Below the pieces are notes generated by a model. That model ran no database searches, was not told the DNA's origin, and was given only the letters and a program-made list of their open reading frames with translations. A DNA stretch of 56,531 nt, taken from positions 1-56,531 of the forward strand of contig JBEGSW010000045.1 in the NCBI GenBank assembly GCA_041179705.1. Reading direction: 5' to 3'. Below, piece by piece: positions 4,551 through 33,124 of the stretch. The position numbers and the translations under genes are program-made. The first letter of the stretch is position 1; each line of letters begins with the position of its first letter. The DNA is from Bacillota bacterium. Its GTDB lineage: Bacteria; Bacillota; Bacilli; Paenibacillales; JBEGSW01.

Positions 4551-5940
4551 TACGCTAACGCGAACGAAACAGCGATTCACGCCACTTGAGCCGGGTAAAG
4601 TAAAGATGTACGTCTGTGGCCCCACGGTATATGGCTATATTCATATAGGAAACGCGCGTCCAGTCGTCGTGTTCGACGTCGTTCGTCGCTATTTCATTAG
4701 TCAAGGATACGATGTGAATTTTGTGATGAACTTCACGGACGTTGACGATAAATTAATTCGTAAAGCAGAAGAAATGAATAAGACGGTTCCTGAAGTGGCG
4801 GAGATCTTCATCGATGCCTTTATGGAAGATATCGAGGGGCTAGGTGTGTTGCCGGGTGCGGTTCGTCCCCGCGTGACGGAAAATATTCCTGAAATCATCA
4901 CACTCATTTCGACGCTTGAAGCGAAAGGATTTGCTTATGAAGCTGGCGGCGATGTCTTTTTCCGCAGCACAAGATTCGAAGCCTACGGTAAATTGTCACA
5001 GCAAAACTTGGACGACTTGCAATTCGGGAAGCGCATTGAGGTAGATCCGCGCAAAGAGAATCCGCAGGACTTCGTACTTTGGAAAGCAGCTAAGCCAGGT
5101 GAGATTGCTTGGGCAAGCCCTTGGGGTGATGGTCGCCCAGGCTGGCACATTGAGTGCTCGGCGATGGCTGGCAAATACTTGGGCAACACGATCGACATTC
5201 ATGGTGGCGGACAAGATTTAACATTCCCGCATCACGAGTGTGAGATTGCCCAGTCTGAAGCATGCAATGAGCAACAGATGGCAAATTATTGGATGCATAA
5301 TGGCTATGTGAACATCAACAACGAGAAGATGTCGAAGTCATTGAATAACTTTATTACGGTTGTGGACCTTCGCACGAAATACAAAAAAGAAGTATTACGT
5401 TTCTTTATTTTATCGGCACATTATCGCAACCCGCTGAACTTCAATGAAGAAGTGATGCAGCAGGCAGAGCAAAGTGTGGCACGGATTGCGAATGGTGTCA
5501 GCGACATCGCGCATCGCCTAGCAGCATTGGCTGGAGCGGGTGTGGAAGACGAGAAAGCGAAACAGGTGCAAGCGACAATCGGTGAAATCATCGCGCGATT
5601 CCATGAACGGATGCAGGACGACTTCAATACGCCAGATGCAATCACAGCGATTTTCGATTTAGTAAGCCTAATGAATCAATACTTGATGCAAGCAACGGTC
5701 GATCCGGCAACATTAGAGCAAGCGTTGGCTGCCTTTCATGCGATGAACGACGTACTTGGTGTAATCCCGCAAGCAAACAGCGACTTGCTCGATGCTGATA
5801 TTGAAGCGTTAATCGTCGAGCGAACAGAAGCACGTCAATCCCGCAACTGGGCACGTGCTGACGAAATCCGTGATCAGCTCTTAGCAGAAGGCATCGTACT
5901 GGAAGATACGCCACAAGGTATTCGTTGGAAACGGAAGTGA
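4531..5940 (+). CDS. cysS: cysteine--tRNA ligase
   Basis: [32 protein letters not shown]; start 4531 or GTG 4522. Confidence 0.97.
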
Positions 5941-5945
5941 ATGCA

Positions 5946-6368
5946 ATGATCCATATTGCCCCTTATCAGAAAGTAGAATTAATGAACCCAATTGTGCTCG
6001 CTTATGTGGGTGACGCAGTTTTGGAAATGTACGTCCGTCAATTGGTCGTCTCACGTCCGAACTTAAAGCCGAATGATCTTCATCGCGCAACCACACGATA
6101 TGTATCTGCCAAAGGGCAGGCCATGGCATTGAAGGTTATTGAACCGATTCTTTCCGAAGACGAAGCAAATGTCGTTCGACGAGGGCGCAATGCCAAATCT
6201 GGGAGTGCGCCAAAGAATGCGGATGTACTTGATTATCGACATAGCACGGGCTTTGAAAGTTTGTTAGGCTATTTATATTACAAAGGTGAACAGGAACGAC
6301 TTTTAGAAATCTTAGATGCGTTCCGTCAGGTATTAGATAACGATGCGACACCGACAAAGGAGAAATAA
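5946..6368 (+). CDS. mrnC: Mini-ribonuclease III
   Basis: LAYVGDAV...RRGRNAK...YRHSTGFESLLGYLY; follows cysS; exact start uncertain (5937 GTG possible). Confidence 0.92.
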   Translation: MIHIAPYQKVELMNPIVLAYVGDAVLEMYVRQLVVSRPNLKPNDLHRATTRYVSAKGQAMALKVIEPILSEDEANVVRRGRNAKSGSAPKNADVLDYRHSTGFESLLGYLYYKGEQERLLEILDAFRQVLDNDATPTKEK

Positions 6369-6371
6369 GCC

Positions 6372-7124
6372 ATGAAAGAGGAAGAACGCGAATATATTGG
6401 AGGAAAGCACTCCGTTCTGGAAGCTTTTCAGTCCAAACGTGCGATCCATAAAATTTGGATTTCCAATACGACACAGCCCCACTGGTCGCAACCGATTTAT
6501 GAAGCAGCAAAAGAAGCGGGGATCATTGTACAGTCCGTCGATAAGCGCAAGTTAGATCAAATGGCTCCGGGTCTTCAGCATCAAGGCGTTGTTGCCCAAG
6601 TAGCCGCTGCCGAATACATGGACCTGGATGAAATGCTTAACCAGCTAGAACAATCGGAACGCACGCCAATTTTGGTGATTTTAGATGAATTGGAAGACCC
6701 GCATAATTTAGGCTCCATTATTCGAACGGTTGAGTGTGCCGGCGCAAACGGTGTCATTATCCCTAAGCGTCGTTCGGTCGGCTTAACGATGACGGTATCA
6801 AAGACATCTGCAGGTGCAGTTGAATATGTACCGGTTGCACGAGTAACGAATTTAGCGCAAGCGATGGAGACGTTGAAAAAGCGTGGTATCTGGATCGTTG
6901 GTGCAGCGGGAGAAGCCAAGCAAAGTCTTTATGACTTAGACTTGAATATGCCTTTGGCAATTGTGATTGGGAATGAACATAATGGGCTCGGTCGACTTGT
7001 ACGTGAGAAATGCGACTTCTTAGCTAAATTGCCGATGTACGGAAAGATTCAATCGTTGAACGCATCGGTTGCAGCAAGTTTGTTTATTTACGAAGCGGTT
7101 CGTCAGCGTCTGGCGAAAAAATAA
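6372..7124 (+). CDS. rlmB: 23S rRNA (Gm2251) 2'-O-methyltransferase, TrmH/SPOUT family
   Basis: HQGVVA, DPHNLGSIIRT, GNEHNG, SLNASVAA motifs. Confidence 0.93.
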   Translation: MKEEEREYIGGKHSVLEAFQSKRAIHKIWISNTTQPHWSQPIYEAAKEAGIIVQSVDKRKLDQMAPGLQHQGVVAQVAAAEYMDLDEMLNQLEQSERTPILVILDELEDPHNLGSIIRTVECAGANGVIIPKRRSVGLTMTVSKTSAGAVEYVPVARVTNLAQAMETLKKRGIWIVGAAGEAKQSLYDLDLNMPLAIVIGNEHNGLGRLVREKCDFLAKLPMYGKIQSLNASVAASLFIYEAVRQRLAKK

Positions 7125-23707: not shown

Positions 23708-24898
23708 ATGGCAAAAGCTAAATTCGAACGTAACAAACCACACGTAAACATCGGTACTATCGGTCACGTTGACCATGGTAAAACTACTTTAACAGCGGCA
23801 ATCACAACTGTATTGTCCAAGCGTTATGGCGGTGCTGCAGTAGCATTCGACCAAATCGACAAAGCTCCAGAAGAGCGCGAACGCGGTATCACAATCTCCA
23901 CAGCACACGTTGAGTACGAGACTCCTAACCGTCACTATGCTCACGTTGACTGCCCAGGCCATGCTGACTATGTAAAGAACATGATCACTGGTGCTGCTCA
24001 AATGGACGGCGCGATCTTAGTAGTATCTGCTACTGACGGTCCTATGCCACAAACTCGCGAGCACATCCTTTTGTCCCGCCAAGTAGGTGTACCTTACATC
24101 GTTGTATTCATGAACAAATGCGACATGGTTGAAGACGAAGAGTTGCTTGAATTAGTAGAAATGGAAATCCGTGAACTTCTTTCCGAGTACGAATTCCCAG
24201 GCGATGACACTCCAGTTATCCGTGGTTCCGCTCGTGAAGCATTACAAAACCCAGATGGCGCTTGGGCTGACAAGATCGTTGAATTGTTCGAACAAATCGA
24301 CACTTATATCCCATTGCCAGAGCGTGCAACTGACAAGCCTTTCCTTATGCCTGTCGAGGATGTATTCTCCATCACTGGTCGTGGTACAGTTGCAACTGGC
24401 CGCGTAGAGCGTGGTATTGTTAAAGTTGGTGACGAAATCGAAATCATCGGTTTAGTGGAAGAGCCTACTAAGTCTGTCGTAACAGGCGTAGAGATGTTCC
24501 GCAAATTGTTGGATTCCGCACAAGCTGGTGACAACATCGGTGCATTGCTTCGTGGTGTTCAACGTACAGATATCGAGCGTGGTCAAGTTTTGGCGAAACC
24601 AGGTTCTGTTAAGCCTCACACGAACTTCACAGCTCAAATCTACGTATTGACTAAAGAAGAGGGTGGCCGTCATAAGCCATTCTTCACTGGTTACCGTCCA
24701 CAGTTCTACTTCCGTACAACTGACGTAACTGGTATCATTTCTTTACCAGAAGGTACTGAAATGGTTATGCCTGGCGATAACATCACTGTTACGGTTGAAT
24801 TGATCAACCCAATCGCTATGGAAGAAGGAACTCGTTTCGCTATTCGTGAAGGCGGCCGTACAGTAGGCGCTGGTGCAGTAGCAACAATCCAAAAATAA
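23708..24898 (+). CDS. tuf: elongation factor Tu
   Basis: [28 protein letters not shown]. Confidence 0.99.
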
Positions 24899-24925
24899 TT
24901 TTCTTTCTAACGAGAGAAGATAAAT

Positions 24926-24969
24926 AAAAATCCGTTGTTTCAGCTTCCGAGCTGAGACAACGGATTTTT
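24926..24969. terminator. bidirectional intrinsic terminator between tuf and convergent LacI gene
   Basis: aaaaatccgttgtttcagct-tccg-agctgagacaacggattttt, A run 5' and T run 3'. Confidence 0.88.
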
Positions 24970-25982
24970 TATTTTGAAATTGACGATTCTCGAACCATTA
25001 AACGATGAGGGATGATGATCCGACGATCACTTGGCTCCTCACCACGTAATATTCTTAATAAGGTAAATATAGAAGCATAGCCTAATTGATAAATGCCGAT
25101 TTCCATACTTGTAATTTGTGGAGATGAAATCTGTGAAATAATCGTATTGTTAAAACTGACAACAGCGATATCTTCAGGTACTTTTTTACCTAATTCTTTA
25201 AGTTTTTGAATGATACCAAAAGCAATATCATCACTAATGGTTACAAATGCAGTGGGATGATTGGATAAACTCATAACTAAGGGGATTTCATGATAATTTG
25301 TATCAGAATACATACTATACTCAAAAAGTAGTTCTGGTCGAATCGCAATACCTGACTCTTCGAGCGCCTTTGAGTATCCAAGAAATCGATCAGTTGACAT
25401 CACGATACTCCGTGGGCCGCCAATAAATCCGATCGAAGTATGCCCTTGATTGATGAGGTGCATTGTTACATCGTACGAAGCAGTAACGTTATCGTTATCA
25501 ATTGTGAAATGTGAAGACTCATCCGAGTTTCCAATGATGACAAACGGAAAATTTTGATCGGTTAAAAATTGAACAATTGAATCGAAAAAGCGATTACTCA
25601 ACACAACTAATCCATCGACTTTACCACCACGAACTAAATTGACCACTTGTTTCTGTAATTCCACTAGTGTATTTGCTGAAGTCACAATCACATCATAGTT
25701 ATGTTTAGAAGTATAATCTACGATTCCTCGAATGACTTCGTTAAAAAACACGTTACTAAAAGCTTGCTCAGTAGGACCGGGTATAATGATTCCAACGGTT
25801 GAAGTTGATTGTGAAACTAGACTTTTGGCCATTAGATTCGGATGATAATTCAGTTGCTCGATGGCTTTTTTTACTCTATCGACTGTTTCTTGGCTGATTT
25901 TTGGATTTTCTAAAATAACGCGTGATACAGTTGATGGCGAAACACCAGCAAGAGCGGCAACATCTTTAATTGTAACTTTCAT
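24969..25982 (-). CDS. LacI-family transcriptional regulator (MalR/MdxR-like)
   Basis: MKVTIKDVAALAGVSPSTVSRV HTH, LNYHPN hinge, periplasmic-binding-fold core, VPEDIAVVSFNN, RES C-terminus; divergent from the maltodextrin operon. Confidence 0.92.
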   Translation of the reverse strand: MKVTIKDVAALAGVSPSTVSRVILENPKISQETVDRVKKAIEQLNYHPNLMAKSLVSQSTSTVGIIIPGPTEQAFSNVFFNEVIRGIVDYTSKHNYDVIVTSANTLVELQKQVVNLVRGGKVDGLVVLSNRFFDSIVQFLTDQNFPFVIIGNSDESSHFTIDNDNVTASYDVTMHLINQGHTSIGFIGGPRSIVMSTDRFLGYSKALEESGIAIRPELLFEYSMYSDTNYHEIPLVMSLSNHPTAFVTISDDIAFGIIQKLKELGKKVPEDIAVVSFNNTIISQISSPQITSMEIGIYQLGYASIFTLLRILRGEEPSDRRIIIPHRLMVRESSISK

Positions 25983-25998
25983 TTTAAGCCTCACTTTC

Positions 25999-26012
25999 TG
26001 CAAACGTTTGCA
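25999..26012. promoter_or_regulatory. LacI-type operator O1 (TGCAAACGTTTGCA)
   Basis: Perfect 14-bp palindrome with central CG just upstream of the regulator start; identical copy at 26192. Confidence 0.85.
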
Positions 26013-26144
26013 CTACAGAAATTATATAAAAATTGAATATAGAAGTAAATAGAAAGATGAAATCGAAACGGTTCCACTCAAAAAAGTTAAATGTAAGCAA
26101 TAAATATGTTGAATTTAAAGATCCACATGTGCAATAATCAACAA

Positions 26145-26158
26145 TGTAAGCGTAAACA
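26145..26158. promoter_or_regulatory. cre site (CcpA catabolite-responsive element)
   Basis: TGTAAGCGTAAACA, one mismatch from the B. subtilis amyE cre TGTAAGCGTTAACA. Confidence 0.75.
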
Positions 26159-26191
26159 TTATTATTTTTTGTTATTTTAAACAAGATTTAA

Positions 26192-26205
26192 TGCAAACGT
26201 TTGCA
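26192..26205. promoter_or_regulatory. LacI-type operator O2 (TGCAAACGTTTGCA)
   Basis: Perfect palindrome ~30 bp upstream of the first operon gene. Confidence 0.85.
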
Positions 26206-26234
26206 GAAAAATAAATAAATGGGGGTAATATGCA

Positions 26235-27458
26235 ATGAAAAAGGTTTTATCCGTATTAGTAGCACTTTCGTTGGTTGTAGGCTTGTTTGCTGCAATCGGC
26301 TCAACTGCATCAGCGGCTGAGAAGAAAATTGTTGTACTTGTAGGTAATTTGCAAAAAGCTTTGGGTGCAGCTGGAGATTGGGATCCAACTGACACAAAGA
26401 CGGCGATGTATACGGCTGATGGTAAAAATTATTGGTTCACTGGCAAATTGCCAGCCGGCGATTATGAGTACAAAGTAGCTCTAGGTGGCAAAGGCTGGAG
26501 CGAAAACTATGGCGCAGATGGTAAGAAGGATGGCGACAATATTAAGATTAGTACAGGTCTTGCTCGCACAATTACATTCTTCTATAACGATGATACGCAC
26601 AAAATCACAACAAGCCGCCATGTAACATTAGTTGGTAGCTTGCAAGATAAGTTGGGTGCAGAAAAGGCATGGGATCCTACTGCAGCTGAAACACAAATGC
26701 GAACAGTTGATGGTGAGAATTACTTCTTCACAGGTAAACTACCTGCTGGCGAATATGAATATAAGGTAGCAATTGCTGGAAGCTGGACAGAGAACTACGG
26801 TGCTGCTGGTAAAGCGGGTGGCGATAATATTAAGATTTCTCAAGCAGAAGATGGAAATGTTACTTTCGTATATAACGACACAACGCATGAAATTTATGCA
26901 GGTAAACATGTTGCGTTAGTTGGAAATATTCAAAGTGCGATTGGTGCTGCGGGGGACTGGGATCCTGCAACATCAACAACTGTTATGTTACCTCAAAAAG
27001 ACGGTACTTATGTTTACACAACTACAGTCGGTAAAGGGAACTATGAGTACAAGGTAGCTTTGAACGGTAACTGGGATGTGAACTATGGACAAGATGGCAA
27101 GTCAGGTGGAGATAACCTTAAACTTGCTGTTGATAAAGATGCGAAATACAAGTTCACATATGATGACAAATCACATGTAATTAAAGCGGAGATTGTCTTA
27201 ACAAAGAAAATCTTCCCTAAATCCATTAAATTCGAATACCCGAATATCATGCTTAACAAAGGCTTCTCTTATAAGACAACCCTAATTACAAATCCTGGTT
27301 TAATCACGGAGAAACAAGTTAGCTATCGTTCTTCTAACCGAAATGTAGCTACAGTAGATGCTACTGGTAAGATCACAGCAGTTTCCAAAGGTACAGCTAC
27401 AATAACAGCTAGAACACCTTACAACAAGACAGCAACAATGACGATTACAGTTCGTTAA
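26235..27458 (+). CDS. secreted non-catalytic protein: 3x pullulanase X25-like (starch-binding) domains + C-terminal Big_2 Ig-like domain
   Basis: Signal peptide ending ASA-A; three ~96-aa repeats VxLVGxxQ..G..WDP...Y..T..LPAG.YEYKVA..G.W.ENYG..G..GDN; C-terminal YRSSNRNVATVDATGKITAVSKGTATITA typical of Big_2; no GH13 catalytic motifs. Confidence 0.8.
   Translation: MKKVLSVLVALSLVVGLFAAIGSTASAAEKKIVVLVGNLQKALGAAGDWDPTDTKTAMYTADGKNYWFTGKLPAGDYEYKVALGGKGWSENYGADGKKDGDNIKISTGLARTITFFYNDDTHKITTSRHVTLVGSLQDKLGAEKAWDPTAAETQMRTVDGENYFFTGKLPAGEYEYKVAIAGSWTENYGAAGKAGGDNIKISQAEDGNVTFVYNDTTHEIYAGKHVALVGNIQSAIGAAGDWDPATSTTVMLPQKDGTYVYTTTVGKGNYEYKVALNGNWDVNYGQDGKSGGDNLKLAVDKDAKYKFTYDDKSHVIKAEIVLTKKIFPKSIKFEYPNIMLNKGFSYKTTLITNPGLITEKQVSYRSSNRNVATVDATGKITAVSKGTATITARTPYNKTATMTITVR
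26331..27182 (+). repeat. three tandem intragenic domain repeats (~290 bp period): ~26331-26606, ~26622-26894, ~26910-27182
   Basis: Recurring tgggatcc (WDP), tatgagtacaa/tatgaatataa (YEYK), aactatgg/aactacgg (NYG) at a ~96-97 codon interval. Confidence 0.85.
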
Positions 27459-27488
27459 TCCAAAATTCAAAAAAAGGGGAATGTACAA

Positions 27489-28724
27489 ATGAAATTCAAA
27501 AAAGTCGTTTCATTAACAGTAGCAACAGCATTAGTTGCGTCTCTAGCAGTAACAGCGGGCAGCGCATCTGCAGCAACAAAAATCACACCAGAAAAAGGAG
27601 CTAAATTGCTTCTATGGGATGATAAAGATTCCAAGCCATTCTGGGATAAATTGATTCCTCAGTTCCAGAAAAAATATGGCGTAACTGTTAAGTATCAAAT
27701 CGTTGGCGGTCCTGACCAAGATGAGAAATTTGCGAAAGACGGTCCTGCAGGGATTGCAGCTGACGTTGGTGTAATTCCTCATGACAACTTGGCGAAACTA
27801 GTGGATGCTGGTTTATGGTTGCCTAACGATGTGTTTGCAGCGGAAACAAAAGCAAACAACATTAAAGCAGGTGTTACTGCTGGAACATACAAAGGTGTAT
27901 TGTATGGCTACCCAAAAGCGATTGAAACATACGCTTTGTTCTACAACAAAAAATTAGTAAAGACAGCTCCAAAAACTTGGAATGATATTATTGCGCTTTC
28001 CAAAAACAAAGCTATTCAAGATCCAGCTAAAAAGAAATTCACATTCATGGCTGAAGTGAACAACTTCTACTTTGACTATGCATTTATGACTGCTGGTGGT
28101 GGCTATGTATTCGGTAAAGATGGTACAGATCCATCTGACATTGGCTTGAACAATGCAGGTGCTGTTGCTGGTGCTAAGCAATTGAAAGCATTGAAAGCAA
28201 TTTTGCCTTTAAAAGTTGGCGATATTACTTATGATGTAAAAGAATCCTTGTTCCAAAAAGGTCAACTTGCGACTAACATCAACGGTTCTTGGGCAATTTC
28301 TGGTTACCGTAAAGCTGGCTTAGACTTTGGTGTAACTGCTATTCCTGCGGTTAACGGCAAGCCTACAGAATCTTTCTCTGGTGTTAAAATCGTTGGTGTT
28401 AACTCCTACTCCAAATATCCTAAAGCTGCTCGCTTGTTAGCACAATTTGCTACTTCGGCAGATGCACAGTTGTTGAACTACCAAACAACTGGTCAATTAC
28501 CAACAAACTCTAAGGTTTCTGCAAATCCAGCAATCAAGAATGATGTTATCGTACAAGGTTTCTTGCAGCAATTGAAGACTGCACAACCGATGCCAAGTAT
28601 TGCTGAGATGGGTTCCGTATGGGGGCCAATGGGCGCTGCTTTAGCTGATATCTGGGATAAAGATGCAGATCCAAAAACAGCTTTAGATGCTGCTGTAAAG
28701 AAAATTAAGAACGCGATTAAGTAA
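27489..28724 (+). CDS. maltose/maltodextrin ABC transporter substrate-binding protein (no lipobox)
   Basis: DGPAGIAADV, PHDNL, LYGYPKAIETYALFYNKKL, INGSW, PMPSIAEMGSVW: MalE/MdxE/CycB-like motifs; SPase I-type leader; no cysteine anywhere. Confidence 0.88.
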   Translation: MKFKKVVSLTVATALVASLAVTAGSASAATKITPEKGAKLLLWDDKDSKPFWDKLIPQFQKKYGVTVKYQIVGGPDQDEKFAKDGPAGIAADVGVIPHDNLAKLVDAGLWLPNDVFAAETKANNIKAGVTAGTYKGVLYGYPKAIETYALFYNKKLVKTAPKTWNDIIALSKNKAIQDPAKKKFTFMAEVNNFYFDYAFMTAGGGYVFGKDGTDPSDIGLNNAGAVAGAKQLKALKAILPLKVGDITYDVKESLFQKGQLATNINGSWAISGYRKAGLDFGVTAIPAVNGKPTESFSGVKIVGVNSYSKYPKAARLLAQFATSADAQLLNYQTTGQLPTNSKVSANPAIKNDVIVQGFLQQLKTAQPMPSIAEMGSVWGPMGAALADIWDKDADPKTALDAAVKKIKNAIK

Positions 28725-28755
28725 TTAACATGATGTAAGTATGAAAAAACAGAAA

Positions 28756-28789
28756 AGGGCTATCCAGACCGAAATTCCTGGATAGCCCT
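28756..28789 (+). other. intercistronic stem-loop after the SBP gene (mRNA stabiliser / partial terminator)
   Basis: agggctatccag...ctggatagccct 12-bp perfect stem without a strong + strand U tract. Confidence 0.65.
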
Positions 28790-28827
28790 ATCTGTTTCAA
28801 TTCAAGATAGAAAAGAGTGAGAGGCGA

Positions 28828-30144
28828 ATGAATACATACCGTATCGTACCTGCGATTCTATCCCTATTACTGCCAGGTCTTGGTCAATTGTTCAATAAAC
28901 AATGGATCAAGGGCCTGATTTTTGCTGTAATTGGGACGTTTTCGAGTTTATACTTTATAAAAAGTCTTCCGCATGCAGTATGGGGCATTGTTACGCTTGG
29001 AGAGAAGACGCAACGTTTGGTTATCGGAAAAGATGGTATTTCAGAGATGGTTCAAGGTGACCATTCTATCTTATTAATGTTAAACGGTGTTTTTGTTGTT
29101 ACTTTTTTTGCACTTTATGTACTGTTCTGGTTCTTTAATATCAAGGATGCATTTATTGTTGGTGGATTGAAAGAACAAAATTTAAAGTCCCCGACATTTA
29201 AACAAACGCTATATTTTTTATCGGAGACGAAATTCCCAGAATTAATGCTAATTGTTCCGATTATTGGAGTAGTGTTTGTTACAATCGTACCAATCGTATT
29301 CACCGTATTTATTGCGTTTACAAACTATTCTGCACCGAACTATTTACCACCAGCTAAATTATTAGATTGGGTTGGGTTTGAAAATTTCCGAAGACTTGTT
29401 GATTTCGGTGAATATAAAGCAACATTCTTTGGTGTTGCACGTTGGACGTTCATTTGGGCTGTTCTAGCTACTGTTACGACGTTCTTTGGTGGTTTCTTAG
29501 TAGCATTACTTGTAAATCAAAAAGACGTTAAATTTAAATACTTCTGGCGAACGATGCTAATCTTACCATTCGCAGTACCTCAACTAGTATCGTTGTTGGT
29601 TATGCGCAATTTGTTCAATGGTGAGTTTGGGCCGATTAACCAATATTTAAGAAGTTTTGGAATGGAGAACATCCCTTGGTTGACAGATCCATTATGGGCA
29701 AAGGCGACAGTTGTCATCGTTAATATGTGGTTAGGTATTCCGGTTTCTATGATTTTCATTATGGGTATTTTGACAATGATTCCTAAGGATTTATATGAAG
29801 CTGCAGAGATTGACGGTGCTTCTAAAATCAAACAATTTTCAAAAATTACGCTCCCATATGTATTGTTTGCAACGGCTCCGATTATTATCATGCAATTTGC
29901 GGGTAACATTAATAACTTTAACGTTATCTTCTTATTAACGAATGGTAATCCGGTGAATGGTGACTACATGTATGCGGGAGACACTGATTTATTAGTGACG
30001 TGGCTCTATAAATTGACGTTAGACAGTCAGAAATATGATGTTGCTGGTGCAGTAGGTATTGTTATCTTTATCATTATTGCAACATTGTCACTCATTAGTT
30101 ATAGAAATACTTCATCCTTCAAAGAGGAGGATCAAATCCAATGA
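28828..30144 (+). CDS. maltodextrin ABC transporter permease (MalF/MdxF-like)
   Basis: Multiple TM helices, EAA loop LYEAAEIDGASKIKQFSKITLP, FNNFNVIFLL-like and AGDTDLLVTWLYKLT motifs. Confidence 0.9.
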   Translation: MNTYRIVPAILSLLLPGLGQLFNKQWIKGLIFAVIGTFSSLYFIKSLPHAVWGIVTLGEKTQRLVIGKDGISEMVQGDHSILLMLNGVFVVTFFALYVLFWFFNIKDAFIVGGLKEQNLKSPTFKQTLYFLSETKFPELMLIVPIIGVVFVTIVPIVFTVFIAFTNYSAPNYLPPAKLLDWVGFENFRRLVDFGEYKATFFGVARWTFIWAVLATVTTFFGGFLVALLVNQKDVKFKYFWRTMLILPFAVPQLVSLLVMRNLFNGEFGPINQYLRSFGMENIPWLTDPLWAKATVVIVNMWLGIPVSMIFIMGILTMIPKDLYEAAEIDGASKIKQFSKITLPYVLFATAPIIIMQFAGNINNFNVIFLLTNGNPVNGDYMYAGDTDLLVTWLYKLTLDSQKYDVAGAVGIVIFIIIATLSLISYRNTSSFKEEDQIQ

Positions 30145-30989
30145 GCAGAAGAAACAAAAAACCTAAAGTTCGTATTGGTCTAATCCTAAGTTATGCGGCT
30201 CTCATTGCACTAGTGATTATCGCGCTTTATCCAATTGTTTGGATTGTCGCAGCTTCCTTCAGAGAAGGGACATCGTTATATAGTACCGAGTTGTTCCCTA
30301 GAAAGATAACACTAGACCATTATTATGAGTTGTTTACATCGAAAGAATACATGTATACCAGATGGTATACGAATACGCTTCAAGTAGCTTTCCTGACAAT
30401 GATTTTTACAACAACGATTGTCACGATTTCTGGTTATGTGCTCTCGCGATTCCGATTTGGCATGCGGAAGACGTTGTTGAGTTCCATTCTTATTTTGGGG
30501 ATGTTCCCAAGTTTCATGAGTTTAACTGCAATTTACGTTATGCTTGTACAGTTGAAGTTATATGATAATTTGTATGCGCTTGTTGGTATCTATTCTGCCG
30601 GCGCACTGATGGGCTCGTTCCAGGTTAAAGGATTCTTCGATACAATCCCTAAAAGCCTTGAAGAATCAGCCAAGTTAGATGGTGCAAGCAACTTCCAAGT
30701 GATGCGTTTAATCATGCTACCACTTTCGAAGCCGTTGCTCGTATTCATTGCACTTACTTCTTTCACGGGTGCTTGGACAGACTTTATCTTAGCAAGACTG
30801 TTGATTCAAACTCCTGAGAAACAAACGCTCGCCGTGGGATTATATGATCTTGTATCTACGGTACAAACTTCGAATGCTACACTGTTCGCAACAGGCGCAG
30901 TATTAATTGCAGTACCAATTACCGTTCTCTTCATCGTCCTTCAAAAGTATTTAGTCAGTGGGATGATGGCGGGAGCAGAAAAAGGATGA
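30141..30989 (+). CDS. maltodextrin ABC transporter permease (MalG/MdxG-like)
   Basis: EAA loop KGFFDTIPKSLEESAKLDGAS, TLAVGL, QKYLVSGMMAGAEKG C-terminus; ATGA overlap. Confidence 0.9.
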   Translation: MSRRNKKPKVRIGLILSYAALIALVIIALYPIVWIVAASFREGTSLYSTELFPRKITLDHYYELFTSKEYMYTRWYTNTLQVAFLTMIFTTTIVTISGYVLSRFRFGMRKTLLSSILILGMFPSFMSLTAIYVMLVQLKLYDNLYALVGIYSAGALMGSFQVKGFFDTIPKSLEESAKLDGASNFQVMRLIMLPLSKPLLVFIALTSFTGAWTDFILARLLIQTPEKQTLAVGLYDLVSTVQTSNATLFATGAVLIAVPITVLFIVLQKYLVSGMMAGAEKG

Positions 30990-32560
30990 TTAGAATGAGA
31001 AAAGCGATAATTACTTTAATGCTCCTTTCGTTGGTTGTCTCTTTAAGTGGCGTTTCAACAGCAGCATCTACACCAAAAAGCAAAACGGGTGTATATTATG
31101 AAATTTTCGTACGTTCTTTCAATGATTCGAATGGTGACGGGATTGGCGATCTAAAAGGCGTCACGGCTAAACTCGATTACCTAAAAAGTTTAGGTGTAAA
31201 AGGGATTTGGTTGATGCCAATTACAGCAAGTCCGAGTTATCACGGCTATGATACAACGGATTATTACAAGATAAATCCAGACTACGGAACAACAGCTGAC
31301 TTGAAAGCGTTAGTAACAGCTGCACATAAAAAAGATATAAAAATCATTATGGATTTGGTTGTTAACCACACGAGCAGTCAACACCCGTGGTTCGTGGATG
31401 CATCAACGAATCCTGCGAGTAAGTATCGCGACTACTTTGTCTTTGCAACAGAAGATGACGATATCGATGCTCAAAGTGCGACGGGAGCAGGAAATGCATG
31501 GCATAGTGCAGCAACAGGAAAGTATTTAGGTATTTTCTGGAGCGGAATGCCAGACTGGAATTTCAACAATAAAGCAGTTCGTGCTGAGATGGTGAAAATC
31601 GGCCAATATTGGTTAGATCCTAAAATAGCTGGCGTAGATGGCTATCGGCTCGATGCAGCCAAACACATTTACGAAGACTTTGCGGAGCAAAATAAAACCA
31701 AAGCAAATGAGCGTGGCGTTGCATGGTGGCAGGAATTCCGAACAGGTTTGAATAAGGTGAACAAGAATGCATATCTAGTAGGTGAGATTTGGGATGGCCC
31801 GTCTGTTGTTGCACCATACTTGAATAAAGCATTAAACTCCGGTTTCAACTTCGAGATTGGCAAAAGTATCGTTGAGAACGCAAAGAGTGGTTCCGATGGT
31901 GGAGTCGGTTTTATCTTAAACCGCGTTCACGAATACTTTAAAAAACAATCAGGCGGTACATTTGTAGATGCACCATTCTTAACAAATCATGATCAGACGC
32001 GAGTGATGTCTGAATTAGAAGGCAATGTGAATAAAGCCAAAGTAGCGGCAAGTATGTTGTTGACTTTACCTGGTAATCCATTTGTCTACTACGGCGAAGA
32101 AATTGGGATGCAAGGATTGAAGTCTGACGGAGATGAAGCACTTCGCACGCCTTTCCTTTGGACCGCTAAAAAATCAAAAGGCCAAACGACAGTCATGGAA
32201 GGCTATGGCGATCAAGCAACAGGTATTAATGTAGAAACACAACTCAAAAGCTCTTCCTCATTGTTGAATCATTACAAAAAAATGATCGGTTGGAGAAACG
32301 CGGATTATACATTAAGTGATGGAACAATCGGTGAATACACAATTAGTGATACAACAGTAGCAGCTTGGACGCGTTCGGCAAATAAGAAGAACACATTAGT
32401 ACTTCATAACTTAACTTCCAAAACCAAGACGATAACAATCAATGGTTCTGACAATACAATGAAGTTTAAAAAGGTTTCGAAGCAAACGGGTACTGGTGCA
32501 AAAGTGAGCGGAAATAAAGTTACAATCCCTGCATACAGCACAGTACTGATGAGTCAATAA
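30986..32560 (+). CDS. secreted GH13 alpha-amylase (GH13_36-like, AmyA type)
   Basis: YYEIFVRSF, DGIGDLKG, SYHGYD, DLVVNH, GYRLDAAKH (nucleophile), VGEIW (acid/base), FLTNHD, YYGEEIG; CSR-V MPDWN; signal peptide without Cys; start 30986 or 30995. Confidence 0.9.
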   Translation: MIRMRKAIITLMLLSLVVSLSGVSTAASTPKSKTGVYYEIFVRSFNDSNGDGIGDLKGVTAKLDYLKSLGVKGIWLMPITASPSYHGYDTTDYYKINPDYGTTADLKALVTAAHKKDIKIIMDLVVNHTSSQHPWFVDASTNPASKYRDYFVFATEDDDIDAQSATGAGNAWHSAATGKYLGIFWSGMPDWNFNNKAVRAEMVKIGQYWLDPKIAGVDGYRLDAAKHIYEDFAEQNKTKANERGVAWWQEFRTGLNKVNKNAYLVGEIWDGPSVVAPYLNKALNSGFNFEIGKSIVENAKSGSDGGVGFILNRVHEYFKKQSGGTFVDAPFLTNHDQTRVMSELEGNVNKAKVAASMLLTLPGNPFVYYGEEIGMQGLKSDGDEALRTPFLWTAKKSKGQTTVMEGYGDQATGINVETQLKSSSSLLNHYKKMIGWRNADYTLSDGTIGEYTISDTTVAAWTRSANKKNTLVLHNLTSKTKTITINGSDNTMKFKKVSKQTGTGAKVSGNKVTIPAYSTVLMSQ

Positions 32561-32586
32561 ATATAATAGAAGAAACATGTATTTTC

Positions 32587-32631
32587 AGCCCCTATTTTAT
32601 AAGGGAAATCCCTTATAAAATAGGGGCTTTT
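32587..32631 (+). terminator. terminator of the starch operon (42-bp near-perfect palindrome)
   Basis: agcccctattttataaggga-aa-tcccttataaaataggggct then ttt. Confidence 0.85.
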
Positions 32632-32647
32632 GTGTATAAAAAAAGAG

Positions 32648-32676
32648 TTGACTCTTGATATCAGCTCCTATATAAT
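32648..32676 (+). promoter_or_regulatory. sigma-A promoter of S10 operon
   Basis: TTGACT-17bp-TATAAT with A-rich UP element. Confidence 0.85.
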
Positions 32677-32682
32677 GTTGAA

Positions 32683-33124
<442 letters not shown>

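Follow-up and report, generated by a model that had tools for sequence, protein, structure and literature searches.

A cell without an outer membrane must, by textbook logic, tether the binding proteins of its ATP-binding cassette (ABC) importers, and the characterised maltodextrin-binding proteins of monoderm bacteria are, to our knowledge, lipoproteins. According to the accessible part of PMC13068155, solute-binding proteins (SBPs) of monoderm bacteria are normally lipoproteins, and 45 of 89 lipoproteins were SBPs. Modules of the X25 family bind maltooligosaccharides, and tandem copies of them are described for the non-catalytic SusE and SusF (SusF having three), for Sas20 and for the scaffoldins Sca5 and Sca3 (PMC9112005, as far as its accessible part goes). 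The subject of this report is a transcription unit in the 56,531-nucleotide contig JBEGSW010000045.1 (in full length, the window; contig C45) of assembly GCA_041179705.1 (genome G000), a Bacillota bacterium of the order Paenibacillales, in which a LacI-type repressor gene stands divergently from genes for an X25 protein, a maltodextrin-type SBP, two MalF/MalG-like permeases and a GH13 alpha-amylase. Open reading frames (ORFs) and Pfam matches agreed with the original prediction on this gene content (an X25/Big_2 protein without a catalytic domain, an SBP, two permeases, a GH13 protein and a LacI regulator). The unit is a real, conserved and rare variant of the maltodextrin operon common in the Paenibacillus order, with a handful of metagenomic relatives, and is best explained as a repressor-controlled operon for the harvesting of alpha-glucans (starch, glycogen, maltodextrin) by an uncultured small-genome monoderm of that order.

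Leaders of the exported proteins and comparison with orthologs

The X25 protein (MKK-VLSVLVALSLVVGLFAAIGSTASA↓AEKK), the SBP (MKFKK-...AGSASA↓ATK) and the amylase (M(IRM)RK-...GVSTA↓AST; arrows mark the predicted cleavage sites) all carry leaders with an n-region of charge +2 or +3, a hydrophobic core 15-19 residues long and, ahead of an Ala, a small-x-small site, and would probably be cleaved by signal peptidase I (SPase I). No Cys was found in the first 40 residues of any of the three, the SBP and the X25 protein being Cys-free over their whole length, Pfam matched no wall-binding family (SLH, LysM or other) in them, and their C-termini are polar. The usual monoderm state, an SBP tethered as a lipoprotein, was not found in this operon. 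The claim that none of the three has a recognisable anchor was borne out by these features (n-h-AXA leaders, no Cys, no wall-binding family), and the anchor-free reading of the exported proteins is supported at the level of sequence.

A lipobox hidden by wrongly placed starts, or a diderm cell in which the SBP would be periplasmic, is an extremely improbable source of this picture. Sequence derived from a metagenome-assembled genome can hold errors, and nothing specific was found here; the SBP frame opens only 10 codons 5' of its ATG with no alternative start in that interval, Shine-Dalgarno-like sequences precede the ATGs, and the same sequence was recovered in one DNA run and three RNA-library runs, apart from a single intergenic A indel. 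The amylase may start at 30995 rather than at 30986, which leaves its leader unchanged. As to a diderm envelope, Omp85 was not found in the genome (90% complete), orthologs of the operon proteins carry the source names Paenibacillus or Cohnella, and lipoproteins of the spore-germination type, as well as others, are encoded in the genome. Both explanations were rejected on the frame limits, the sites resembling ribosome-binding sites and the missing Omp85.

The SBP and the amylase were searched in 200 genomes of the order, and leaders were read in the 29 best orthologs of each. A lipobox Cys was present in all 29 SBP orthologs (in L065 it lay past the 40-residue script window and was seen by eye), and a lipoprotein Cys in all 29 amylase orthologs, 28 of which fit a strict lipobox expression, with FGC in the remaining one (L129). 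Because all of the orthologs examined keep the Cys, loss of the lipobox in the SBP and the amylase of the window is supported as a derived state. It is shared by a small clade, to which belong the SBP orthologs P0122 (75% identity) and P0123 (69%), with ASA↓AT leaders and no Cys, and the amylases P0242, P0243, P0245 and P0246 (among them identities of 97, 78, 62 and 59%), with leaders of the SPase I type; those SBP matches of 58% identity or less that were inspected were either lipoproteins or started inside the linker. The Cys and the first conserved motif lay 39-52 residues apart (median 48; 28 of 29 measured) in the SBP orthologs and 13-61 residues apart (median 45.5; 20 of 29 measured) in the amylase orthologs, as against 14-15 and 8-12 residues, respectively, in the clade, where distances were counted from the predicted cleavage site. 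The shortened distances together with the lost Cys indicate that both anchor and tether are gone from the SBP and the amylase of the clade. The amylase clade received 100/100 support in a maximum-likelihood tree of 34 rows (the window's amylase and those of P0241-P0274 longer than 450 residues), in which two rows outside the clade had no Cys in their first 50 residues and are possibly truncated. The longest contigs of P0122 and of an X25-protein ortholog, P0002, are both 31,572 bp long, which suggests that the two genes lie on one contig.

The remainder of the operon is common. Out of 55 genomes with an amylase ortholog, 40 had it within approximately 6 kb of the SBP ortholog and 30 had a collinear arrangement (hand count), while malG was directly upstream of the amylase gene in 12 of the 29 best loci (10 by script; L114 and L137 touch the match boundary). 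In G095 (L109, 6611-13298), for example, a divergent LacI gene is followed by SBP, MalF, MalG and a 523-residue GH13 protein with SusG_C, with no X25 gene, and both the SBP (...VTAC) and the amylase (...IVGC; named Paenibacillus roseipurpureus by a source) are lipoproteins. In G015, X25 is found on a 2609-residue SLH-anchored amylopullulanase approximately 3 kb from the SBP gene. Since the backbone with its LacI gene is found widely across the order, 30 of the 55 genomes having it in collinear form, the unit is a variant and not the undescribed system that the original prediction had proposed; the gene-neighbourhood comparison leaves standing that the X25 gene and the SPase I-type leaders are limited to a small clade. 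Among the sequences compared, it is only this clade that has swapped both leaders to the predicted SPase I type and gained a first-placed X25 gene. The combination of coordinated anchor loss and a stand-alone gene for three X25 modules and Big_2 was not found in the literature searched.

Leaders that remain uncut could tether the proteins by an N-terminal hydrophobic helix, as in some Gram-positive and archaeal SBPs, which would reduce the finding to a minor variant. Hydrophobic cores of 15-19 residues are enough to span a membrane, and a carbohydrate-type SBP without lipobox elsewhere in the genome (contig C59, at approximately 13306), which has an N-terminal helix and no AXA site, looks membrane-anchored in this way. 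Such signal anchors are nevertheless unlikely for the operon proteins, in that AXA↓A is present in all three SBPs (own, P0122, P0123), all four X25 proteins (own, P0002-P0004) and five of the six clade amylases (own, P0242, P0243, P0245, P0246; P0244 has a lipobox). The linker of approximately 34 residues found in tethered relatives is moreover deleted in the SBP and the amylase, so that the domains would lie flat on the membrane, and an SPase I gene was found in the genome.

The X25 protein, the solute-binding protein and the amylase

In the X25 protein, Pfam matched X25_BaPul_like (PF22058; E 7.5e-84, 276.4 bits, three stretches, above the gathering score), Big_2 (1.4e-12) and SusF_SusE (28.3 bits), and no catalytic family; single X25 modules scored 95-103 bits each. 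Its AlphaFold2 model (mean predicted local distance difference test score, pLDDT, 85.1; residues 1-26 below 50) consists of three beta-sandwiches and a C-terminal Ig-like domain, and the Foldseek ranking was headed by Sca5 X25-2 (7rpy, 3.7e-10), followed by BaPul (2wan, 1.9e-9), SusF (4fe9, 4.1e-7) and then SusE, while by sequence the nearest solved structure was 2wan, the B. acidopullulyticus pullulanase, through its X25 module. Across 13 aligned sequences, each module has two invariant Trp (W49/W88, W146/W184 and W242/W280) together with invariant YxYK (Tyr/Lys) and N positions, these residues being placed on the Sca5 and SusF binding sites by analogy with published descriptions and not by superposition. 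By these conserved residues and a modelled fold matching Sca5, BaPul and SusF, the protein is predicted to bind starch. Distant X25 homologs hold conserved Cys pairs (LGCxGDWxPxC), which the four clade proteins have replaced, leaving Cys-free X25 modules. As a small Cys-free protein with three X25 modules, it makes, along with the compact amylase, a candidate pair of starch-binding and starch-cutting parts.

Three orthologs (P0002-P0004; 59-63% identity), with the same architecture of three X25 modules and Big_2 and with AXA↓A leaders, were recovered from 5.8 billion clustered proteins, and scans of genome and metagenome contigs with the X25 protein gave relatives of 28-46% identity only; at five genome loci (L001, L005, L007, L009 and L012) these relatives lay inside ORFs of 1082-2030 residues, and L004 holds an ORF of 329 residues. 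A full-length ortholog was absent from the 40 relatives of the order that were searched, six of which had matches to the X25 region, inside open frames of 727-2616 residues, the remaining matches being to Big_2 only. Within G000 itself, X25 is confined to the operon gene (26235-27458). The X25 region matched 1428 proteins at E<=1e-3 among 1.84 billion representatives, and 66 of the best 150 of these are 520 residues long or shorter (some are possibly fragments). X25 was present in all 66, Pullulanase_N2 in four, GH13 in one and Big_2 solely in the window's protein. The premise that X25 modules usually sit on catalytic enzymes did not hold up, as 65 of the 66 short homologs are without GH13 and SusE, SusF, Sas20 and Sca5 are described as non-catalytic in the accessible part of PMC9112005, so that binding-only X25 proteins were already known. 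Among the 120 X25 homologs listed, 20 are MalE-like SBPs of approximately 600-630 residues with two C-terminal X25 modules (including P0037, P0052, P0054, P0060, P0061, P0065, P0067, P0095 and P0116), named Anaerolineae, Phototrophicales or Chloroflexi; all nine of the fusion sequences inspected bear leaders of the SPase I type. X25 together with a solute-binding protein was not found in the literature searched.

The C-terminal Big_2 domain superposes (root-mean-square deviation 2.0, 86 columns) on Big_2 of 7quz (Paenibacillus illinoisensis; title: octameric Big_2-CBM56), on whose octamer nothing relevant was found in the literature searched. Big_2 also occurs in an SPase I-type trypsin-like protease (two copies) and in a 305-residue protein of three Big_2 domains at G000:C11:38900-42400 (L074, 4905-8399), and it is on this account a recurrent module of exoproteins in this genome. 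The surrounding region (C11, 34-49 kb) was considered as an anchoring or starch locus and rejected, as it holds the Big_2-trypsin protease, the three-Big_2 protein, a GH18-SLH protein and a cytoplasmic-type neopullulanase with no visible link to the operon.

These domains bear on a real, if rather unlikely, possibility, namely that the exported proteins are retained at the surface without covalent anchors, as the original prediction had inferred, by protein-protein or protein-wall contacts in an assembly of the Sus or amylosome kind. Big_2 might bind a wall or S-layer component or might oligomerise, and the SBP might dock on the X25 protein, the two forming a split version of the fusions; the 20 SBP-X25 fusions among the 120 homologs listed, the adjacency of the X25 and SBP genes (30 nt apart), the superposition of Big_2 on an octameric entry and the SLH-bearing ORFs found in the genome all point in that direction. 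In SusE and SusF the Ig-like domain adjoins the anchor, which also counts for retention. A precedent exists in a G. stearothermophilus amylase held non-covalently to S-layer and wall, as described in the accessible part of PMC4232325. On the other side, none of the three proteins has a known wall-binding family, Big_2 sits on the protease and the three-Big_2 protein with no sign of anchoring, and MalF (438 residues, as compared with 450 and 437) and MalG (282, as compared with 283) have the lengths seen in lipoprotein-type operons, with no extra docking domain visible. CsaB (PF04230) was not found in the genome, which at 90% completeness says little.

The SBP matched SBP_bac_8 (7.7e-40) and also SBP_bac_1; the nearest NCBIfam models were GanS (246.7 bits) and MalE (194 bits), below the equivalog cut-offs, and the nearest solved structure by sequence was the cyclo/maltodextrin-binding protein 2zyk (E 3.4e-68). 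The amylase matched Alpha-amylase (1.1e-98, 331.9 bits) and SusG_C, with H. orenii alpha-amylase A (1wza, E 2.2e-131) and SusG (8.6e-72) as the nearest structures by sequence, and we take it to belong to the H. orenii AmyA/SusG group, GH13_36. The motifs DLVVNH, GYRLDAAKH, GEIWD and FLTNHD are readable in it, which represent the four conserved regions of GH13 with their Asp/Glu/Asp residues.

Operon layout, regulation and host genome

The features of the unit are collected in Table 1. It lies, bounded by terminators, in the tuf-rpsJ interval; the six ORFs are all intact, their starts are coupled, and malG overlaps both of its neighbours by 4 nt. The hairpin between the SBP gene and malF may act as an mRNA stabiliser or attenuator. 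The tuf-rpsJ gap measures 218-965 bp in 26 of 29 relatives and 7917 bp here (24899-32815), where it is filled by the unit; the junction is also interrupted in the remaining three (loci L080, L085, L088 and L140-L142), with an ORF of 455 residues in G015 and giant ORFs of 1050-2082 residues in G006, which has no tuf within 16 kb. Recent transfer was considered on base composition and rejected, since the GC fraction of the island (0.389, genome mean 0.426, standard deviation 0.0285 in windows of equal size) is no outlier, 8.7% of windows being as low.

Table 1. Position of genes and signals in and around the operon (coordinates of the window)
Feature	Position	Strand	Description
Hairpin, 20-bp stem	24926-24969		20 pairs, 7 GC, T/A runs on both sides; left border, after tuf and the convergent lacI-type gene
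LacI-family repressor gene	24969-26003	-	Pfam LacI 3.4e-21, Peripla_BP_3 2.2e-31; likely true start ATG 25982
Operator 1, perfect palindrome TGCAAACGTTTGCA	25999-26012		Immediately 5' of the lacI-type gene
Pair of overlapping candidate operon promoters, sigma-70-like	26109-26165	+	9 of 12 consensus matches each; no more numerous than in shuffles
Operator 2, identical palindrome	26192-26205		30 nt ahead of the start of the X25 gene
X25 protein gene, 407 residues	26235-27458	+	SPase I-type leader, three X25, C-terminal Big_2
SBP gene, 411 residues	27489-28724	+	Maltodextrin/cyclodextrin type; SPase I-type leader, no lipobox, no linker
Hairpin, 13-bp stem, between SBP gene and malF	28756-28789		Listed on the - strand; palindromic stem
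MalF-like permease gene	28828-30144	+	BPD_transp_1; MalF model 229 bits, 1e-67, below equivalog cut-off
MalG-like permease gene	30141-30989	+	BPD_transp_1; MalG model 6.2e-51, below equivalog cut-off
GH13 alpha-amylase gene, 524 residues	30986-32560	+	SusG_C, SPase I-type leader, no carbohydrate-binding module (CBM)
Terminator ending the unit	32587-32628	+	19-bp stem, T tail
Promoter-like TTGACT-17-TATAAT for rpsJ	32648-32676		Follows the terminator of the unit

The operator palindrome has exactly two exact copies in the 1.41 Mb genome (0.006 expected), both in the intergenic region between the lacI-type and X25 genes, where they flank the divergent promoter region. This uniqueness bears out the proposal of a regulator dedicated to the operon; the repressor itself is a generic LacI in NCBIfam, below every equivalog cut-off, and probably controls its own gene through operator 1. 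A copy with two mismatches (C3:6561-6574) lies just downstream of the second secreted GH13 gene of the genome (C3, approximately 5390-6790, + strand), a 462-residue frame with an SPase I-type leader ending in ISFA↓AT. In other genomes, exact copies of the palindrome were seen near X25-containing open frames (amylopullulanase) at L023, 2243-2256 (G008, 2037 residues), and L024, 2674-2687 (G031, 2317 residues), and these copies suggest a putative regulon motif that is conserved across the order. The unit contains no ATPase gene; one gene of the MsmX/MalK type lies elsewhere, as a 412-residue open frame with the single OB_MalK match of the genome (G000:C58:39267-39437).

One study includes three RNA-library runs whose contigs, at 95% identity or more to the window, extend over the X25 and SBP genes and, in all three, across the junction between them; the contigs of one DNA run cover the whole unit. 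The RNA-library contigs are patchy elsewhere over malF, malG and the amylase gene, with none over 29057-29698 in any of the three runs and none over 24884-25846 (the lacI-type gene) in two of them (X9 and X12). Their presence over the X25-SBP junction is consistent with expression but no proof of it, since such contigs cannot show transcription, absence, level, ends or strand, and the gaps carry no weight either way. The sole indel is an extra A in the A-run of the spacer behind 27468, present in the contigs of all three RNA runs; it is non-coding strain variation just upstream of the SBP ribosome-binding site.

The window is one of 66 contigs of a 1.41 Mb genome that is 90% complete and is the sole member of its family within the order, the other genomes of which are mostly 2.3-9 Mb in size. 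Eight sequencing runs from five studies, one possibly the source, contained at least half of the window's sampled words, and are labelled freshwater, aquatic or aquaculture metagenome. G000 has 17 GH13 matches in approximately 9-11 genes, several cut by contig ends, and most of these genes look cytoplasmic (oligo-1,6-glucosidase-like, neopullulanase-like and GlgB-like); the organism, with a very small genome for its order, looks like an alpha-glucan specialist. Of the lipoprotein machinery, Lgt is present and LspA is partial, at a contig edge, and approximately 20 ORFs have credible lipoboxes, including PstS-, ZnuA- and MalE-like SBPs. The MalE-like lipoprotein SBP (C7:5367-6656, - strand; lipobox LAAC; 32% identical to the operon SBP) is an orphan that adjoins suf genes and has no permease genes beside it. 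A carbohydrate-type SBP without lipobox (C34:2725-4077) has an SPase I-like leader (...MMGSAAA↓KTT) and precedes two permease genes.

Relaxed selection in a shrinking genome, where anchor loss would be decay, the SBP would transport poorly and only the amylase and the binder would matter, draws on the small genome size and on the MalE-like lipoprotein paralog on C7. It is very unlikely in view of the intact ORFs and their coupled starts, the retention in the SBP of all 65 columns that are invariant across 22 homologs, the SPase I-type form kept in SBP orthologs at 69-75% identity, and the RNA-library contigs over the SBP gene.

Mode of action and comparison with known systems

We consider cleavage and release of the three proteins, followed by short-range binding, cutting and capture and by uptake through MalFG-MsmX, the most probable mode of action, at a probability of roughly 0.55. 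As long as maltodextrin is absent, the LacI protein would use the two identical palindromes to repress both its own gene and the operon. The three leaders would be cut by SPase I, which would free the proteins from the membrane; the trivalent X25 protein would then provide starch binding in trans, like SusE/F and Sas20, to an amylase that lacks a CBM and would cut the polymer or granule at short range. The SBP could work in soluble form, in the style of a periplasmic binding protein but within or close to the wall, and pass maltodextrins to MalFG, which would be powered by the MsmX/MalK-type ATPase encoded elsewhere. A division of labour into binding, cutting and import is reasonable on this basis.

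Several points weigh against release. Cleavage is deduced from the -3/-1 rule, the conservation of AXA↓A in orthologs and the loss of the linker, and the sharing of the operon among orthologs solely from the 31,572-bp contigs of P0002 and P0122. One clade amylase, P0244 (61% identity), is still a lipoprotein with a lipobox. Most other SBPs of the genome keep their lipoboxes, so the change is not accounted for by a general property of the envelope. With no outer membrane around the cell, a soluble SBP should also diffuse away, which together with the lipoprotein rule of monoderms makes the released mode physically awkward unless the protein is retained; the literature searched for SPase I-type SBPs in monoderm bacteria gave general papers on lipoproteins only.

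A further and quite doubtful possibility is that the released SBP, X25 protein and amylase cooperate on the starch or glycogen particle as a hemophore-like 'maltodextrin shuttle', either bound to the particle or diffusible over a short range, in which the X25 protein may dock the SBP, as in the Anaerolineae SBP-X25 fusions, and in which the switch of two genes from lipoprotein to secreted form would represent a changed foraging strategy in a streamlined freshwater lineage. In this operon one lineage has shed the lipid anchor and linker from both SBP and amylase and gained a starch binder that stands alone, with lipoproteins kept elsewhere. If the proteins are released yet functional, the operon would be a tractable case for how monoderms retain or recapture extracellular nutrient-capture proteins, and would place X25 modules alongside ABC importers, beyond the Sus and amylosome models of the gut.

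Compared with described systems, the S-layer-bound high-molecular-mass amylase of G. stearothermophilus is a precedent for an exo-amylase of a spore-forming member of the Bacillota that is held without a covalent anchor; it is large, with defined binding regions for S-layer, wall and secondary cell wall polymer (SCWP), to which no homologous region was recognised here (PMC4232325, accessible part). The R. bromii amylosome resembles the operon in being Gram-positive, with the secreted, non-catalytic X25 starch binders Sas20 and Sca5, and X25-2 of Sca5 was the best structural match. According to the accessible part of PMC9112005, Sas20 has a dockerin, Sca5 has cohesins and a sortase signal, and X25 pairs in Sas20 form one clamshell site, whereas the X25 protein here has three modules; dockerins, cohesins and sortase signals were absent from the three operon proteins, and the genome, at 90% completeness, yielded no sortase.

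The Sus system of B. thetaiotaomicron shares with the operon a non-catalytic protein of three X25-type modules and one Ig-like domain (SusF), an amylase related to SusG and the split into binding, cutting and import. It differs in that SusE, SusF and SusG are lipoproteins, whereas the exported proteins of the operon have no lipoboxes, and in that the operon has ABC components only, with neither SusC/SusD nor an outer membrane (no Omp85), and places its Ig-like domain C-terminally. The SBP-X25 fusions (for example P0054, P0061 and P0067) likewise couple X25 to a maltodextrin-type SBP behind SPase I-type leaders, but do so in one polypeptide (the SBP followed by two X25 modules), in another phylum and with Cys pairs in X25, while here two genes are involved and X25 comes first.

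Closer relatives are the maltodextrin/cyclodextrin ABC systems of the Bacillota, which we take to include B. subtilis MdxEFG-MsmX, CycB/GanS-GanPQ and the cyclo/maltodextrin-binding protein of Thermoactinomyces vulgaris (2zyk); these have an SBP of the MalE/CycB family, permeases of the MalF/MalG type, an ATPase encoded elsewhere and LacI-type control in common with the operon, which differs in the SPase I-type leader of its SBP. Closest of all are the Paenibacillus and Cohnella operons exemplified by G095, seen as automatic annotations, whose lipoprotein SBP and amylase stand on linkers of approximately 45 residues and which have no X25 gene, and which share with the unit described here the gene order, the divergent LacI gene, the SBP (56% identity), the permeases and the 523-residue amylase (52-53% identity).

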